From assembly GCF_044324785.1 (NCBI RefSeq), contig NZ_CP172127.1: a stretch of 64,000 bases of DNA, one strand, 5' to 3'. The stretch comes from Escherichia coli (GTDB lineage Bacteria > Pseudomonadota > Gammaproteobacteria > Enterobacterales > Enterobacteriaceae). The notes beneath the pieces were generated by a model. It was not told where the DNA came from and did no database searches. It was given only the letters and a program-made list of their open reading frames with translations. The first letter of the stretch is position 1. Each line of letters begins with the position of its first letter. Both the position numbers and the translations under genes were made by a program. Positions 8,614 through 61,631 of this stretch are shown in pieces.

Positions 8614-8931
8614 ATGAGCAAAACTCGTCGGACTAAACGCACCTTTTCCCCGGAGTTCAGGCTCGAAGCTATCGAGCAAGTAGTTAAATACCAGCGCGAT
8701 GTCAGAGAAGTCGCGCTGGCACTTGAGCTCAATCCTGACCATTTGCGTAAATGGATACGGTTGTATAAGCTGGAACTTCAGGGTATTGAGCCCGCTGGTA
8801 ATGCCATACCCCTGAACAGCGAGAAATTCAGCAGCTTAAAAGCGCAGATAAAGCGCCTTGAGATGGAAAAAGAAATACTAAAGCAGGCTGCCGTGCTGAT
8901 GAGCGAAATCCCCGGCAAGCTGTCGCGCTAA
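8614..8931 (+). CDS. IS3-family transposase OrfA (HTH plus leucine zipper), element truncated downstream
   Basis: 105-aa ORF MSKTRRTKRTFSPEFRLEAIEQV...LEMEKEILKQAAVLM; only the first codons of an orfB follow before the adjoining IS-like copy at about 9062. Confidence 0.65.
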   Translation: MSKTRRTKRTFSPEFRLEAIEQVVKYQRDVREVALALELNPDHLRKWIRLYKLELQGIEPAGNAIPLNSEKFSSLKAQIKRLEMEKEILKQAAVLMSEIPGKLSR

Positions 8932-9061
8932 TCACACTGCTGAAAGCAAAGCGGCCAGTGCGGATTATTTGTCATTTATTCGGTGTTCACCGTAGCGTTT
9001 ATTACGCGCAGGTGAAGCGTCCTGTTAATGTATCAGCGCCAATGATATAAGACAGTAATTA

Positions 9062-10688
9062 GGATTCGGACGATTTCCTGGACTGCTTTATTATGCCAGC
9101 CCGCATTGTTGGCGGTACATTTCAGGGATGACTGCACCCAGCGAAAATTTTATACGCCGCTCGTTATACCATCTGATGTAAGCATCCACATGCCGCATGA
9201 ATTTTTCAGGCGTGATACCCAATCATTTACGCCCATAATATATTTCAGTTTTCAGTCTGCCGAAAAAGCCTTCGCATGCAGCATTATCAGGCGAGCATCC
9301 TTTACGGGACATTGAGCGAATAAGGCCTGCTGTATTCACTCTTTCCAGCCAGGCCAGCGATAATGCCCACCTCTGTCACTGTGTATCACCGGTCGTTCGC
9401 CAGCATTTAACGTTTCGACAGCGTTATCCAGCATAGTGTTGACCAGTTCAGCATCGGGGCGTGTACTGAGAGACCAGCTCACAACTTTTCTGTCGAAGCA
9501 GTCCACCACCGGTGATAGCCAGACTTTTCCTGCAGGAAGCTGGAACTCCGTGATATCTGTCAGCCATTTCTGATTAGGTTGCTCCGCCTTAAAATCTCTG
9601 GCGATAAGGTTATCCGGAGAAGGTCCGATTTCTCCGCAATATGAGCTGTAGCGGCGATGACGGTTACGGCTGACGACAAGCTGTTCCTCCACCATAAGTC
9701 TGCGTACAACCTTTTCTGATAGCCGATCCCCCTCATGCCTGAGCATCGCATGCAGGCGACGATAGCCATAACACTGGTAATTACTGTTAAATATATCTGT
9801 CAGCATCGTACGTATCGTGGCGTATTTATCACTGGCTTTCAGTGCAGCCCGGTGATAAAAATAACTGCTACGGGCAAGGCCCAGAACATGCAGTAATTCT
9901 GTCAGGGGATATGTTTATCTCAGGGCATCAGTAATCTTTGTTTTTTCTCTGTTGTTCAGGTGACTGATGCTGATGCCCGGGTCTTTTTTTATTATTTCCT
10001 CCGCTTTTTTCAGAATATCCAGTTCCATCTGCCGGCGGCGTATTTCCTGATTCAGTCGGGCGACTTCCTCCCGCAACGCATCGCGTTCTGCCTCCAGGGA
10101 AGGGGCGTTATGTTTACGCATAGTCTGGTAAGCACTGTTGCCGATAATTTCATCTTTCCATTTATACAATACCGCGCGACTGACACCAATACGCCTGGCG
10201 ATTTCACTGGCTGATCCTTGTCGTGTACAGAGTACCATGACAGCCTGACGTTTGACTTCTGGTTCAAAGGACGCAACCGGATTGGTCTTACTGGTAAATA
10301 CACGTCGTCTGTCGGGGGAACGTTCATTAACCCAGCGAGCGAGCATATCGGTACAGGGATAACCCAGAGTCCTGCTGGTAAACGCCAGGCAGCAGCCGTG
10401 GTTAAGATAATGTTCAACGGCAACCTGTTTTTGCTCATCGGAGTAACGGTGCTTATGACGAATGGATTCTTTTGATCCGCCACCTGCTTCCCATGAACGG
10501 ATCCAACGCCGCAGATTTCTTTTCGAAGGGTAGCCCAGTTCGCGTACGACGGGGCCAGCTTCTTACCATATTTGAAATAAAGCTCAATGGTGCGAATTTT
10601 TTGTTCTTCAGTAAACATGTTTCATCTCCTGAGAGTCCAGGAAATCGTCCGCATCCCCTAACGGTCAAAAATCGTGGCGTTGATACAG
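9062..10688 (-). mobile_element. DDE (rve) IS-like element, copy 1, decayed; about 50-bp terminal inverted repeats
   Basis: Left end TGTATCAACGCCACGATTTTTGACCG (reverse complement at 10688); right IR lacks about 35 terminal bp; transposase carries a 1-bp frameshift after MFTEEQKIRTIELYFKYGKKLA, a TAA where copy 2 has CAA (Gln), and further shifts near the 3' end. Confidence 0.65.
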
Positions 10689-10868
10689 GGGAAATCCGTA
10701 GTTTTTGATGCCAGCCATAACGTGTTTGACTATAAAGTATTACGAAAGGACTTTAATGAGCCCCTGGAATAATTCATTAAAGTAATTTACTTCGCTATCC
10801 TTTTCCCAGTTACTCACAAAGAAAAATATTCATAAAATAATTCCCGGGCTGGCAGCCCGGGATGATTA

Positions 10869-12131
10869 CTATTTTAATGGATTGTTAATCTTTGCATATT
10901 CAAACGGGCTGATACATTGTTCTCTGTTCGCACCCAGAAAATCTGCCCACCACTGTAGCATCAGTCGACGTTCTTCCAGATGTTCTGCTTTATGGATATA
11001 TGCAGCACGTACACCATTACGCTCCTGATGGCTCATCTGACGTTCCACAGCATCGCGGGACCACAAACCTGATTCAATCAATGCACTGCACGCCATCGCC
11101 CGGAATCCATGACCACAGACTTCCTGGGTTGTGTCATATCCCATCACCCTCAGGGCTTTATTTACAGTATTTTCACTGATCGGTTTACGCGGGTCATGTG
11201 CTCCCGTAAAGATCAGACCATTTTCACCAGCCCATGTCTGTAGTTCTGTCAGTATGGCTACAGCCTGTTTGCTGAGTGGCACAAGATGTGGTGTTCGCAT
11301 CTTGGAGCCCCGGTGTGAGTATTTTACGCCTGGCAGAGGTTCGCGTTCGGCTGGAATAGTCCACATGGCATTGTCAATATCAATTTCAGACCAGCGGGAA
11401 TATCTGAGTTCACTGGAACGAATAAAAACCAGTAAATTCAGCATAACTGCCAGTCGGGTGACAGGCTGACCTTTATAACCGTCAATACGCGACAGAAGTT
11501 CAGGCAGGCGTGAAAGATCCAGAGCAGGGCGATGCTGGCGTTTTACCGTGGTCAATGCACCAGCCATATCCAGAGCCGGGTTATATCTGATGATGCCAGA
11601 CTGTACGGCATAACGCATTACAGCAGATATTCTTTGCTGCAGACGACTGGCGATTTCATAAATTTGTTTTGCTTCTGCAGCACGAACAGGGATAAGCAGG
11701 TCCGGGGTATTGAGTGTTGTGATATCCCGGTTGCCGATAAAGGGGAAAACGTGTGTCTCGAGGCTTTTGATTACTTTATCGCTGTGTGATTGTGCCCATT
11801 GTTTATTACTGGCATGCCAGCGTCGTGCAATATGTTCAAAAGAGAGTTGTAAATCAGGGACTACTTTTTTAGCTCTTTTTTGTTCGCAAGGGTCAATCCC
11901 CTCTGAAATCAGTTTTCGGGCCTCATCCCGTTTTGTACGAGCTTCGGAGAGAGAAACTTCTGGATATACACCAAGTGCCAGAGTCTTCTCCTTACCCAGA
12001 ATACGATAACGGAGACGCCAGTAACGGGAACCATTAGGATGAACCAGCAGGAACATGCCAGCCCCGTCAGTGAGTTTATAAGCCTTGTCAGTGTGCTTTG
12101 CAGCCCGGATTTTTGCGTCAGTCAGTGCCAT
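10869..12131 (-). CDS. P4-type tyrosine integrase (CP4-like island integrase)
   Basis: 420-aa ORF; N-terminal LTDAKIRAAK..GMFLLVHPNGSRYWRLRYR arm-binding domain and C-terminal catalytic region (HGFRAM...RAAY). Confidence 0.9.
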   Translation of the reverse strand: MALTDAKIRAAKHTDKAYKLTDGAGMFLLVHPNGSRYWRLRYRILGKEKTLALGVYPEVSLSEARTKRDEARKLISEGIDPCEQKRAKKVVPDLQLSFEHIARRWHASNKQWAQSHSDKVIKSLETHVFPFIGNRDITTLNTPDLLIPVRAAEAKQIYEIASRLQQRISAVMRYAVQSGIIRYNPALDMAGALTTVKRQHRPALDLSRLPELLSRIDGYKGQPVTRLAVMLNLLVFIRSSELRYSRWSEIDIDNAMWTIPAEREPLPGVKYSHRGSKMRTPHLVPLSKQAVAILTELQTWAGENGLIFTGAHDPRKPISENTVNKALRVMGYDTTQEVCGHGFRAMACSALIESGLWSRDAVERQMSHQERNGVRAAYIHKAEHLEERRLMLQWWADFLGANREQCISPFEYAKINNPLK

Positions 12132-56584: not shown

Positions 56585-56928
56585 TCCCGTTACCTTCCGG
56601 GACCAAAATTTGGCTGGTTGCCGGTATCACCGATATGAGAAATGGCTTCAACGGCCTGGCTGCGAAAGTACAGACGGCGCTGAAAGACGATCCCATATCC
56701 GGCCATGTTTTCATTTTCCGGGGCCGCAGCGGCAGTCAGGTTAAACTGCTGTGGTCCACCGGTGACGGGCTGTGCCTCCTGACCAAGCGGCTGGAGCGTG
56801 GGCGCTTCGCCTGGCCGTCAGCCCGTGATGGCAAAGTGTTCCTTACGCAGGCGCAGCTGGCGATGCTGCTGGAAGGTATCGACTGGCGACAGCCTAAGCG
56901 GCTGCTGACCTCCCTGACCATGCTGTAA
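56581..56928 (+). CDS. IS66-family OrfB
   Basis: 115-aa ORF; LPSGTKIWLVAGITDMRNGFNGLA; homologous to orfB at 58647-58997. Confidence 0.75.
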   Translation: MIPLPSGTKIWLVAGITDMRNGFNGLAAKVQTALKDDPISGHVFIFRGRSGSQVKLLWSTGDGLCLLTKRLERGRFAWPSARDGKVFLTQAQLAMLLEGIDWRQPKRLLTSLTML

Positions 56929-57023
56929 ATCTCTTTATCCTGGTTGTCACAGAATAAGCCCGGTAAAATACGGGCTTATGAACGACATCTCTTGTAAGCG
57001 TCAACGGAGCACCGTATTGACGC

Positions 57024-58616
57024 TTATTTATTGGTGAGTACTACGTTCCATGGCAGGAGTTCGTCAACACAGTTGGAGGGCCATTCCGGCAGTACGCTCA
57101 GAATATGGCGCAGATACGCTTCCGGATCGATACCGTTCAGACGGCAGGTGCCGATCAGCCCGTACAGCAGTGCTCCACGCTCGCCGCCGTGATCGCTACC
57201 GAAGAACACGTAATTTTTCTTTCCGAGACAGACTGCACGAAGCGCTCTTTCCGCTGTGTTATTGTCCGCTTCTGCCAAACCATCATCACTGTAATAACAG
57301 AGGGCGTCCCACTGATTCAGTACATAGCTGAACGCTTCGCCCAGTCTGGATTTTTTCGACAGCGTGCCATTCTTCTCCACCATCCATTCATGCAGCGACG
57401 TCAGTAACGCTTTGCTTCGCTGCTGCCTGGCTGCAAGACGCTCTGACTCTGGTAATCCCCGTATTTCATCCTCGATGGCGTACAGTTCACTGATTCACTT
57501 CAGGGCTTCTTCTGCCGTCGCACTTTTGCTGCTGATGTATACATCGTGGATTTTTCGCCGGGCATGGGCCCAGCACGCAACTTCTGTCAGTGCACCACCT
57601 TCACGTTCTGCACTGAACAACCTGTCGTAACCTGTGAACGCATCCGCCTGCAGGATACCCCGGAAGGGGCGAAGGTGTTGCTCCGGGTGTTTCCCCTGCC
57701 GGTTCGGCGAGTACGCGAACCAGACCGCTGGAGGAGATGACGAACCCACATTGCGATCATCCCGGACATACGTCCAGATACGCCCTGTTTTCGCCTTTTT
57801 CTGACCCGGTGCCAGTACCTTTACCGGTGTGTCATCAGTGTGAACCTTGCGGGTGTTCATTACATAACGGTACAGGGCATCATTCACCGGTGTCATTAAC
57901 TGGCAGCACGCGTCAACCCAGTTGGAGAGTAAGGCCCGGCTCAGTTCGACACCCTGGCGGGCAAAGATTTCACTCTGACGATACAGTGGCAGATGTTCGC
58001 AGTATTTTCCCGTTAACACGCGGGCAAGTAATCCGGGGCCCGCGATACCACGCTCTATCGGGCGGGACGGCGCCGGTGCTTCAACAATACAGTCACATTT
58101 TGTACAGGCTTTTTTTACCCGTTCTGTGCGGATCACTTTCAGGGCACTGCTCACCAGTTCCAGCTGTTCAGCGCTGACTTCCCCCAGATAATCCAGCTCA
58201 CCGCCACACTCCGGGCAACAGCTTTCTTCTGGCTCCAGGCGGTGTATTTCACGGGGAAGGTGTGCCGGTAACGGACGACGATGGCGCGACTGTCGCAACT
58301 GGCGGGGAACCTGAGGATCGTCTTCCCGCCCACTGTAACGATCGCTGTCCTGTTCACGTTGTTTCAGCAGAGCCTCAGCCAGTTCAACTTCACGACGCAG
58401 TTTTTCAGAACGGGTACCGAACAGCATCCGGTGCAGTTTTTCTATCTGAGCCCGCAGATGTTCTATTTCCCGTTCATCTTCTTCGATCTTTTCTTCGGCA
58501 CGTGCCAGTGCAGAGCGCAGGAAGGCCTCCGTCTCTTCAACCAGACTCAGTTGCTGGTCTTTCTGACGGAGCTGGCTTTCCAGTTCTGCAATGCGAATGA
58601 GGTATTTCTGACTCAT
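57024..58616 (-). pseudogene. IS66-family transposase (OrfC) with in-frame TGA nonsense codon
   Basis: Track ORFs 57495-58616 and 57024-57383 share one frame; TGA at 57495-57497; reading through gives ...TAEEALK*ISELYAIEDEIRGL... Confidence 0.75.
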
Positions 58617-58646
58617 GGCCGTTTTTATAATGCGGCCAGGCGTTTT

Positions 58647-58997
58647 TTACAACATTGTCAGTGCGTTAAGGCGGAATGTTTTTGGCTGACGCCAGTCCAG
58701 CTTATCGAGGAGCATTGCCAGTTGCGAGCGGGTAATGGATACCTTGCCGTCACGTACCGCAGGCCAGATAAACTGGCCTTCCTCCAGGCGTTTGGTGAAC
58801 AGGCACAGACCATCAGCATCAGCCCAAAGAATTTTGACGGTGTCACCCCGTCGGCCACGGAAGATAAACAGGTGACCGGAGAAGGGATTATCATTCAGCA
58901 CATGTTGTACCTGTTCTCCCAGTCCGTTGAAGGATTTACGCATATCGGTAACGCCGGCAACGAGCCAGATACGGGTACCTGATGGGAGTGAGATCAT
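58647..58997 (-). CDS. IS66-family OrfB
   Basis: 116-aa ORF; LPSGTRIWLVAGVTDMRKSFNGLG. Confidence 0.8.
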   Translation of the reverse strand: MISLPSGTRIWLVAGVTDMRKSFNGLGEQVQHVLNDNPFSGHLFIFRGRRGDTVKILWADADGLCLFTKRLEEGQFIWPAVRDGKVSITRSQLAMLLDKLDWRQPKTFRLNALTML

Positions 58998-59419
58998 CTT
59001 CCCCTCCCGGTCAGTTCACGGATCAACACTGTGAGCAGCTCTGGCGATGGATTTTCCAGCGTCATGTTACCGTGACGGAATTCCACCTTGCAGGAACTGG
59101 CACTGACTCTGGTCTGAGTGGAAGTGGATAAAGACGGCGCAATGGCCGCCACAGGTTCTTTCTGCTCATCCGGCGTTATTTCTACAGGTAATAATTCAAC
59201 GCCAGTGTCAGAAGAGGTCGTTACCGGAAGACGCCGCGAAACACGCCCTTCGTTCTGCCAGAGCCTGAGCCATTTGAAAATAACATTATCATTGACGCCA
59301 TTTTCACGTGCAATCTGTGCAACACAAGCTCCAGGTTGTGATGCCAGTTCCACCATACGAAGTTTGAATTCATTCGAATAGTTTTTACGAGGTTCTTTTC
59401 GCCAGTCCTGTAATTCCAT
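58994..59419 (-). CDS. IS66-family OrfA
   Basis: 141-aa ORF; ASQPGACVAQIARENGVNDNVIFKWLRLWQ. Confidence 0.75.
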   Translation of the reverse strand: MELQDWRKEPRKNYSNEFKLRMVELASQPGACVAQIARENGVNDNVIFKWLRLWQNEGRVSRRLPVTTSSDTGVELLPVEITPDEQKEPVAAIAPSLSTSTQTRVSASSCKVEFRHGNMTLENPSPELLTVLIRELTGRGR

Positions 59420-59504
59420 ACTTAGATGTCCGTCTATATCAGATGGGCGTCTAAGTTACCAATTCTCGTCTGATGGCTACATACGGCGGTCAGTTTACGC
59501 TTAC

Positions 59505-60797
59505 CTTTATCCCGACAGACGACGTATATTTACCAGTAAGGCCAACCCGGTTGCGCCCTTTGAACCAGAAGTCAAACGTCAGGCTGTCATGGCACTCTGT
59601 ACACGACAAGTATCAGCCAGTGAAATCGCCAGGCGTATTGGTGTCAGTCGTGCGGTATTGTATAAATGGAAAGATAAAATTATCGGCAACAGTGCTTACC
59701 AGACTATGCGTAAACATAACGAACCTTCCCTGGAGGCAGAACGCGATGCGTTGCGGGAGGAAGTCGCCCGACTGAATCAGGAAATACGCCGCCGGCAGAT
59801 GGAGCTGGATATTCTGAAAAAGGCGGAGGAAATCATAAAAAAAGACCCGGGCATCAGTATCAGTCACCTGAACAACAGAGAGAAAACGAAGATCGCTGAT
59901 GCCCTGAGACAAACATATCCCCTGACAGAATTACTGCATGTTCTGGGCCTTGCCCGTAGCAGTTATTTTTATCACCGGGCTGCACTGAAAGCCGGTGATA
60001 AATACGCCACGATACGTACGATGCTGACAGATATATTTAACAGTAATTACCAGTGTTATGGCTATCGTCGCCTGCATGCGATGCTCAGGCATGAGGGGGG
60101 GCGGCTATCAGAAAAGGTTGTACGCAGACTTATGGTGGAAGAACAGCTTGTCGTCAGCCGTAACCGTCGTCGCCGCTACAGCTCATATTGCGGAGAAATC
60201 GGACCGGCTCCGGATAACCTTATCGCCAGAGATTTTAAGGCGGAGCAACCTAATCAGAAATGGCTGACAGATATCACGGAGTTCCACCTCCCTGCAGGTA
60301 AAGTCTGGCTATCATCGGTGGTGGACTGCTTCGATGGAAAAGTTGTGAGCTGGTCTCTCAGTACACGCCCCGATGCTGAACTGGTCAACACTATGCTGGA
60401 TAGCGCTGTCGAAACGTTAAATGCTGGCGAACGACCGGTGATACACAGTGACAGAGGTGGGCATTATCGCTGGTCAGGCTGGCTGGAAAGAGTGAATGCA
60501 GAAGGTCTTATTCGCTCAATGTCCCGCAAAGGATGTTCACCTGATAATGCGGCATGCGAAGGCTTTTTCGGCAGACTGAAAACGGAAATGTATCATGGGC
60601 GTAAATGGTCGGGCATCACGCCAGAAAAGTTCATGCAGCAAGTGGATACTTACATCAGATGGTATAACGAGCGGCGTATAAAATTATCGCCGGGTGCAGT
60701 CAGCCCCAAAATGTACCGCCAACAATGCGGGCTGGAATGATAAAGCAGTCCAGGAAATCGTCCGCATCCCCAGAACGGTCAAACATCGTGGCGTTGA
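59505..60797 (+). mobile_element. DDE (rve) IS-like element, copy 2, 5'-truncated by the IS66 insertion
   Basis: Begins mid-gene directly after the IS66 end at 59504; right inverted repeat ends ...CGTGGCGTTGACA at 60797. Confidence 0.65.
59589..60740 (+). pseudogene. Single-ORF HTH plus rve (DDE) transposase, N-terminally truncated
   Basis: 383-aa ORF; HTH SASEIARRIGVSRAVLYKWK, coiled coil, DDE core ...WLTDITEF..HSDRGGHYRW..; lacks the MFTEEQK N-terminal region seen in copy 1. Confidence 0.6.
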
Positions 60798-61631
60798 CAA
60801 CGGGTTCCTGAGTCCGGTGAAGCGCCGGTTACTGGAAAATGTTGTGTACGTCATAACAGAAACGGAGAGAAAAACGGCGATGCAAATCAGGCGGAGAAGG
60901 GTGTATCAGCGGTTACTGAAGGTTGACCCGCTGAAGTGCATCCTGTGCGGAGGTCAGATGCGGTTTACGGGGCTGAAGCGGGGCTACCGTCTGGCAGAGC
61001 TGGTCATGATGCATGAGCCACTGGCACGACAGCGGGTATACAGCTGAGAGCCGCAGAGGGGAAGTTGCGTCCATTTTTTGAGGAATGGAGCAAAAAATCA
61101 TCACAGATATAAAAAATCAATCAATGAAAGCCATTTAATTGCCGGTGCATTGTGGATGCAGTCCTCATGGTACGTAACCAGAGTTGAATAAACATCCATT
61201 TTTTTGTGTTTTTTTAACCTCCCCGGGTTTTTAATTCCTGTCGATTAAAAGTGTTAGATTATTTGGTTAAGAGTTCTCTCGTCCTATTTATTCAGGCGTT
61301 ATCACGGATATGCAGATCGCTAAGTCAGTTGTAAGAAAACCAGACAGTGCACATCATTATACCTAGGTCTTCTCTGGAAAAATACTTAGGAATAATTTAT
61401 GTAAAACAGGTTGTCGTCTTCATGATTTAAACGCAGTACATATATATACTCTATAATAAATACAGGGAGTATCACGAGACGTCTGGATAAGAGGAATAAC
61501 CAGAATAAATTGGTAAGGAATAAAGACACTTATTTCTATTGAGAAAAAACATTCATCCTGATGTGATTAGTATCAATGAAATAATGTGCTTGTATGGTTG
61601 ATAAAAAATGCATCACTAAAGAAAAAACAGT

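Follow-up and report, generated by a model that had tools for sequence, protein, structure and literature searches.

A damaged insertion sequence (IS) near one end of a 64,000-nt stretch of Escherichia coli DNA (the window, analysed here as a whole), with a second copy of the same element near the other end, raises two questions. The first is whether these copies are the traces of an element that is still active in this genome. The second concerns expression: the helix-turn-helix (HTH) and DDE regions of the transposase lie in one continuous frame, unlike those of typical two-ORF IS3-family elements, and it has to be asked how members of such a lineage are expressed. The two copies and their surroundings bear on the first question. 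The second leads to intact relatives, in which a complete frameshift signal has been kept inside an uninterrupted transposase gene.

The two copies in the window

The sequence-only reading had placed an IS-like element with long terminal inverted repeats at 9062-10688. The element is real and lies on the minus strand, but alignment and termini put its limits at 9029-10687, which is what the annotation of this copy (copy 1) should read. Copy 1 is full length (1659 bp) and aligns from end to end with the intact 1660-bp copy on plasmid pB7A_99 of E. coli B7A, at 94.7% identity. Its left terminus is TGTATCAACGCC... at 10687 and its right terminus ...GGCGCTGATACA at 9029. The left (transposase-proximal) terminal inverted repeat, which starts with 5'-TG, covers 54 nt (10634-10687, minus strand). 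The right repeat, which had been described as shortened, is of full length, with 56 nt (9029-9084, minus strand) and a tip, TGTATCAGCGCC..., that mirrors the left tip at 10687. Its outer 12-13 nt and inner 23 nt match the left repeat around a diverged middle, and this anatomy (outer ~13 nt matching, middle diverged, inner 23 nt matching) is also that of the intact reference. Evidently, the inner 23-nt core had been taken for the whole repeat; this core (9062-9084 with 10634-10656), 96% complementary, is also the only part that the repeat finder reported. Compared with the reference, both tips of copy 1 carry an extra TA (TGTA-TCAACGCC against TG-TCAACGCC), and the same addition at both tips is hard to explain unless they are the true ends of the copy 1 lineage.

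The description of this IS as decayed was borne out. Translated in six frames and aligned with copy 2 and the intact copy, the transposase pseudogene of copy 1 (9091-10618, minus strand; ATG at 10618, stop at 9091-9093) shows four lesions. The first is the loss of one C from a C run near 10552 (10551-10553), a 1-bp deletion that shifts the frame after codon 22, and the second is a CAA>TAA nonsense codon (9917-9915). Both had already been noticed and both are real. Two more had been missed: a 4-bp deletion (CAGG) between positions 9353 and 9354, which causes a second frameshift, and a TGG>TGA nonsense codon (9225-9223). All four are given on the minus strand. Where the identical sequence occurs in other genomes, its PGAP annotation reads 'IS3 family transposase; frameshifted; internal stop'. 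The object in the window is thus an ordinary and already annotated pseudogenized IS, for which the coordinates are corrected here and the list of lesions is lengthened.

Copy 1 is not surrounded by a target-site duplication, with TAA on one side and GGG on the other. Exactly at its right terminus ends a fragment of a different IS3-type element (8614-9028, plus strand), consisting of orfA, which encodes a 105-aa OrfA with an HTH, and of the first ~30 codons of orfB; the rest of that element is not found on the other side of copy 1. The other flank (10683-12131) holds 90 bp left over from a phosphoethanolamine transferase gene and, after them, the gene for a 420-aa P4-type integrase. Since these flanks are unrelated to each other, the present junctions stem from later rearrangement.

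Copy 2 (59505-60797, plus strand) is truncated at its 5' end and has lost the left repeat and about 104 codons. It begins exactly at the GTAAGCG-type terminus of an IS66-family element, whose ...CGCTTAC ends at 59504, in agreement with the earlier statement that copy 2 is cut by IS66. This IS66-family element (56995-59504, minus strand) comprises tnpA, tnpB, and a broken tnpC between GTAAGCG termini. It lacks an 8-bp duplication, and the 5' part that copy 2 has lost does not turn up on its far side. What remains of the transposase gene is open in one frame from the truncation point, through the HTH/DDE junction, to the stop at 60738-60740. The continuous frame that had been described for copy 2 is therefore real, and it is also found in intact relatives. 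The right terminal inverted repeat of copy 2 (60747-60797, plus strand) ends with ...GGCGTTGACA, and no target duplication flanks the copy. Copy 2 shares 98% identity with intact plasmid copies, and its alignment with copy 1, which had been proposed as a check, gives 95% identity.

Other IS remnants surround copy 2. The tnpC gene of the adjoining IS66-family element is split, with only a 373-aa ORF, and the 3' end of another IS66-type tnpB lies immediately to the left of that element (56880-56930). Several IS66 copies appear to be nested or recombined in this region. On the right, an ORF with a zinc-ribbon-like N-terminus (60694-61047), annotated in other genomes as an IS91-family transposase fragment, starts inside the right repeat of copy 2 and runs rightward; this IS-IS junction is conserved in 148 genomes.

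The distribution of these sequences bears on the question of an active element. At least 24 other genomes, the majority with a single place, contain the stretch of copy 1 and its left-end flank at 100% identity, and copy 2 recurs together with its IS66 and IS91 junctions in the 148 genomes. More generally, 1577 of 5426 complete E. coli genomes match the element, with a median of one place per genome, and about 1000 plasmids of Escherichia, Shigella, Klebsiella, and Salmonella do so, mostly as fragments. Considering their 95% mutual identity and the genomes that share them, both copies are inherited island relics rather than recent insertions. The damage to both had led the sequence-only reading to deduce that an active source copy was likely elsewhere in the genome. 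That deduction finds no support: with 5% divergence between the copies, and with many genomes that share these very junctions, nothing calls for an active source copy in this one. Given that no target duplication flanks either copy, their insertion history is one that we infer. Neither copy can make transposase, and both are thus immobile relics carried with the genomic island, although copy 1, which keeps both ends, could at most be moved in trans. For the window itself they are of little importance, as inert scars at two points where a mosaic genomic island has been rearranged.

The island context varies among strains. In strain CREC-544, the copy 1 stretch lies just inside an island adjoining tRNA-Phe, where the P4-type integrase gene is next to the tRNA gene; ARAGORN found no tRNA in the 64-kb window. 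In strain AH50, toxin-antitoxin genes follow the matching stretch. These different contexts of the 10683-12131 region (integrase, tRNA-Phe, toxin-antitoxin) suggest tandem or rearranged islands. Parts of the window match strains Br_167_kylling and AH50 and are not colinear throughout.

Family membership and intact relatives

The reconstructed 510-aa protein carries the Pfam domains rve (PF00665, 2.8e-19), rve_2, and rve_3, as well as HTH_28 (residues 6-47), HTH_Tnp_1 (117-192), and HTH_21 (275-321). It scores 416.9 bits with the NCBIfam model transpos_IS3 (NF033516), whose cut-off is 160. Among the three subgroup references compared, residues 227-507 are 44% identical to InsK of IS150, 30% to InsF of IS3, and 24% to InsD of IS2. 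Leucine-rich heptads at about 176-207, read by eye, point to a leucine-zipper region. The TG...CA ends typical of the IS3 family are present, and the 3-4 bp duplication is found at the pB7A_99 copy (CCTT) and absent at both window copies. The IS3 trait that the element does not share is the OrfAB fusion made by programmed -1 frameshifting, as intact copies have a single ORF of ~510 aa. Both window copies very probably belong to the IS3 family, and within it to the IS150 group, in a form with a fused frame and an in-frame frameshift cassette; copy 1 would then be an inactivated full-length member. As for a curated element name, PGAP and other sources give only 'IS3 family transposase'.

A single-ORF transposase with an IS3-like rve core also characterizes the IS481 family, whose DDE transposases are related to those of IS3 and are made without frameshifting, and the protein does match the NCBIfam model transpos_IS481 weakly. 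This match reaches 74.7 bits against a cut-off of 224, far from the result with transpos_IS3. In addition, the 44% identity to InsK and a slippery site homologous to the frameshift site of IS150 speak against this family, whose members do not have the conserved cassette of slippery site and stem. Membership in IS481 is refuted by the family-model scores, and we give it practically no credence.

The IS150 group thus remains the preferred assignment. IS150 of E. coli K-12 (insJ/insK) shares with the element a multi-HTH N-terminal part, a leucine-rich coiled region, TG..CA ends, and 3-4 bp duplications. It also shares an A-rich slippery heptamer with a stem-loop at the homologous position, where ...LKK/AESLSSSHEKVKVLNELRQFYPL in IS150 corresponds to ...IIKK DPGISISHLNNREKTKIADALRQTYPL here. 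The element is longer (1660 versus 1443 bp), with ~53-nt repeats and ~115 extra N-terminal residues. The two also differ in decoding. IS150 has two overlapping ORFs and obtains its transposase only by -1 frameshifting at A_AAA_AAG, whereas one more A in the element clade allows the transposase to be read straight through, and a -1 shift would truncate it.

The best reference for the intact form is the pB7A_99 copy (locus L003). It is 1660 bp long and encodes one 510-aa ORF (WP_001297014.1) with no frameshift annotated, between TG..CA ends and imperfect inverted repeats of 53 nt that are 79% complementary. It is inserted in umuC, and when 1660 bp plus 4 bp are removed in silico, a 424-aa UmuC ORF is regained, proof of the ends of this copy and of its 4-bp duplication (CCTT). 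At two other full-length plasmid copies (L002 and L004), no clean target duplication was found, and only the pB7A_99 copy is a simple insertion. At the A run, the pB7A_99 copy has nine A (ATA AAA AAA AAC, 2194-2204 of L003), with Asn instead of Asp, and both window copies have seven A followed by G. The nine-A run should be more prone to transcriptional slippage.

Another feature of the ends is an outward-facing TTGACA at the right tip of copy 2 (60789-60797), which is CTGACA in the intact copy (L003 3150-3158). In a circularized element, this hexamer and the GATTAT of the left repeat would be 16-17 nt apart and could, as read by eye, form a junction promoter of the IS3 type. The outward-facing TTGACA is compatible with such a promoter and proves nothing.

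Beyond E. coli, single ORFs of 505-515 aa are found in relatives down to 56% identity, in Dickeya, Salmonella, Enterobacter, Rahnella, Pantoea, Pseudomonas, Cupriavidus, Burkholderia, Alkalilimnicola, and others. There are 44 distinct intact single ORFs, and fused elements occur as multiple identical copies within genomes. The clade-specific pattern described below also matches loci from Peptoniphilus, Hungateiclostridiaceae, and Oscillospiraceae and from Chitinophagaceae and Spirochaeta metagenome bins (L048, L049, L073, L097, and L099), which reflects either wide horizontal spread or binning contamination.

A frameshift cassette conserved within the fused frame

The frames are fused exactly at two invariant lysines (K211 and K212), at the position homologous to the IS150 frameshift site. 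In copy 1, the codons ATA AAA AAA G form an in-frame slippery heptamer, A_AAA_AAA (9984-9990, minus strand). It is followed by a frameshift-type stem-loop (9923-9978, minus strand) with a 5' arm at 9978-9968, a 3' arm at 9933-9923, and one C-A mismatch; a TGA in the -1 frame lies inside the 3' arm. The corresponding cassette of copy 2 (59837-59904, plus strand) is intact, with the heptamer at 59837-59843 and arms at 59849-59859 and 59894-59904. This is the layout of a dnaX-type cassette, with a zero-frame X_XXY_YYZ heptamer, a stem-loop 5-9 nt downstream, and a nearby -1 stop. Shifting to -1 at A_AAA_AAA and A_AAA_AAG has been proven in IS600, IS150, IS911, and IS2 (PMC4066793).

Conservation of the cassette was examined in two samples. 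In 11 of 11 divergent homologues, the K211/K212 codons and the one before them read (A/T)TA AAA AA(A/G), an in-frame A_AAA_AAR. For the wider sample, one genome per species was scanned for the peptide pattern NREKTx(L/V/I)xDA(L/F)(R/K), which specifies neither the heptamer nor the 5' stem arm and so avoids circularity, and at least 119 usable loci were obtained. Among the 119 loci listed, 85 have an in-frame A_AAA_AAR, 11 (~9%) have one A fewer (A6G instead of A7G), and 23 fall into other classes (longer runs, indels, substitutions, truncations). Codon choice is also unusual at this site. The codon before the lysines is NTA in 43 of the 44 intact ORFs, compared with 9.6% of the Leu/Ile/Val codons elsewhere in the same ORFs. 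Similarly, the first lysine is encoded by AAA in 43 and the second in 42 of the 44, whereas AAA makes up 33% of the lysine codons elsewhere in these ORFs.

The stem has 11 bp, formed by GGGCAUCAGCG with CGCUGAUGCCC, starts after a 5-nt spacer behind the heptamer, and encloses ~34 nt. In 112 sequences among the matches listed, 96.8% of 1232 cells are paired, a level reached by none of 500 shuffles, and controls in which the arms were slid gave 52% at most. A set of 13 sequences gives the same picture, and the stem is also predicted when sequences are folded singly (z-scores of -2.3 to -4.0). Of the 119 loci listed, 114 have the TGA in the -1 frame. Part of the stem and the -1 stop overlap conserved codons (G-I/V-S/D, x-D-A), and protein constraint thus explains some of this conservation. 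It cannot explain the covariation at pair 19-69, which is AU in 55, GC in 45, and GU in 9 of the loci among the matches listed, since here the synonymous third base of an Asp codon (GAT/GAC) tracks the first base of an Ile/Val codon (ATC/GTC) 45 nt upstream. No Rfam family matches the stem-loop. The element is not among the conserved-heptamer clusters of Sharma et al. 2014 (PMC4066793), and no relevant report of a single-ORF IS3 element with an in-frame signal came out of a search of the literature, which does not prove novelty.

A rival explanation would be that this is a classical two-ORF element that needs -1 frameshifting, and that the long single ORFs are either recent hyperactive mutants with an extra A or homopolymer errors of sequencing. 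Indeed, the entire frameshift cassette is conserved, and in the 11 A6G loci among the 119 listed the layout is that of a classical IS3 element with A_AAA_AAG: the upstream frame (orfA) runs for 8 more codons to a conserved CTGA, and orfB, with the catalytic part, is in the -1 frame. At least five of these loci are otherwise intact, and the orfA stop of the A6G form is kept as a +1 frame stop of the fused form in 109 of the 119 loci listed. Against this explanation, the fused form is the majority state, found in more than 80 species, down to 56% protein identity and as 44 intact distinct ORFs, and its multiple identical copies within genomes also argue against it. The A6G loci do not form an old clade. 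They are scattered at the tips beside A7G relatives, with 99.3% identity in one pair (L035 and L053) and 95.4% in another (L062 and L056), and look like recurrent derivatives. The two-ORF reading is therefore rejected, and we consider it very improbable. This also settles in favour of the sequence-only reading the point on which it had said it could fail, namely a match to a classic two-ORF IS3 element with a required frameshift: intact relatives have single ORFs. When stand-alone OrfA proteins were sought with the N-terminal 212 aa as query, most of the matches were fragments of decayed copies, and the few proteins of 220-230 aa among them are variants of A-run length.

The fused frame, then, is the prevailing state of this clade, and the slippery site within it is occasionally lost. 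About 10 of the loci listed have no A run (e.g. CTT AGG AAA G), and in two of them (L078 and L112) the ORF is intact, which indicates that the heptamer is dispensable at least for a time. At L029, L030, L044, L061, L080, and L114, as well as at these two, AGG AAA or a similar sequence replaces the A run and the stem is kept. In such lineages, the fused frame seems to have become fixed in the absence of a slippery site.

Possible roles of the cassette

Active members of the clade, of ~1660 bp with TG...CA ends, ~53-nt imperfect repeats, and a 4-bp duplication, presumably transpose by the copy-out/paste-in pathway of their family. Standard decoding would give the whole transposase of ~510 aa in one frame, with two HTH regions, the leucine-zipper region, and the DDE/rve core. 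A fraction of the ribosomes, or transcripts slipped on the A run, would enter the -1 frame and yield an OrfA-like DNA-binding protein of ~230 aa, with the HTH regions and the zipper and without the catalytic core. That the cassette makes such a truncated regulator in the fused form is a real possibility, which we put somewhat short of even. The arrangement would resemble that of E. coli dnaX (tau/gamma), in which the zero frame gives the full-length product and A_AAA_AAR with a stem-loop leads into a soon-ending -1 frame and a shorter protein. The proteins are unrelated, and frameshifting in the element is predicted from the conservation of its cassette only. IS1447-type IS3 elements of Firmicutes (PMC6211511) offer another parallel, with a run of 7-9 A, a non-standard mode of expression, and slippage in two directions that gives several products. 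They differ in that IS1447 needs +1 transcriptional slippage to make its transposase (PMC6211511), whereas the element needs no recoding for it.

Alternatively, the heptamer and stem may have no recoding role, acting only through a pause for N-terminal folding or cis binding, or being kept by protein constraint alone. A pause at the stem may help the nascent transposase to bind its own ends in cis, and in IS911 the pausing associated with the frameshift signal promotes the cis preference of the transposase (PMC5009743). Both stem arms also lie in conserved codons. A pause, however, requires the stem and not the slippery heptamer, yet the rare NTA and the AAA AAA codons are kept at synonymous sites, and the covariation between GAT/GAC and ATC/GTC cannot be due to the protein. 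We regard an absence of any recoding role as unlikely.

Besides the truncated regulator, selection could act mainly through switching between A7 and A6, since an element that loses one A would acquire the classical layout, with its dependence on -1 frameshifting; as the main source of selection on the cassette, this appears more doubtful still. The probability that is left by the regulator, the pause, and the switch goes to none of these roles.

A broader proposal combines regulator and switch. The clade, found in Beta-, Gamma-, and Alphaproteobacteria and in some Firmicutes, may have inverted the usual IS3 logic: ordinary decoding would give the transposase, a -1 shift or slippage would give an OrfA-like regulator, and the gain or loss of one A would switch between a high (fused) and a low (frameshift-dependent) state. 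We offer this as a speculative idea, with the chances rather against it. If true, activity would be under the control of a switch that is built into the element, reversible, and so far undescribed.

At the level of the family, the question is how IS3 elements restrain themselves, to which the usual answer is a low rate of frameshifting. In this clade, the frames have been fused for long evolutionary periods while the frameshift signal has stayed under selection. The signal must therefore do something besides giving access to orfB, for which a truncated regulator, a translational pause for cis binding, and switching by homopolymer length are the candidates. As such, this is a modestly interesting variant of the control of IS3 expression.
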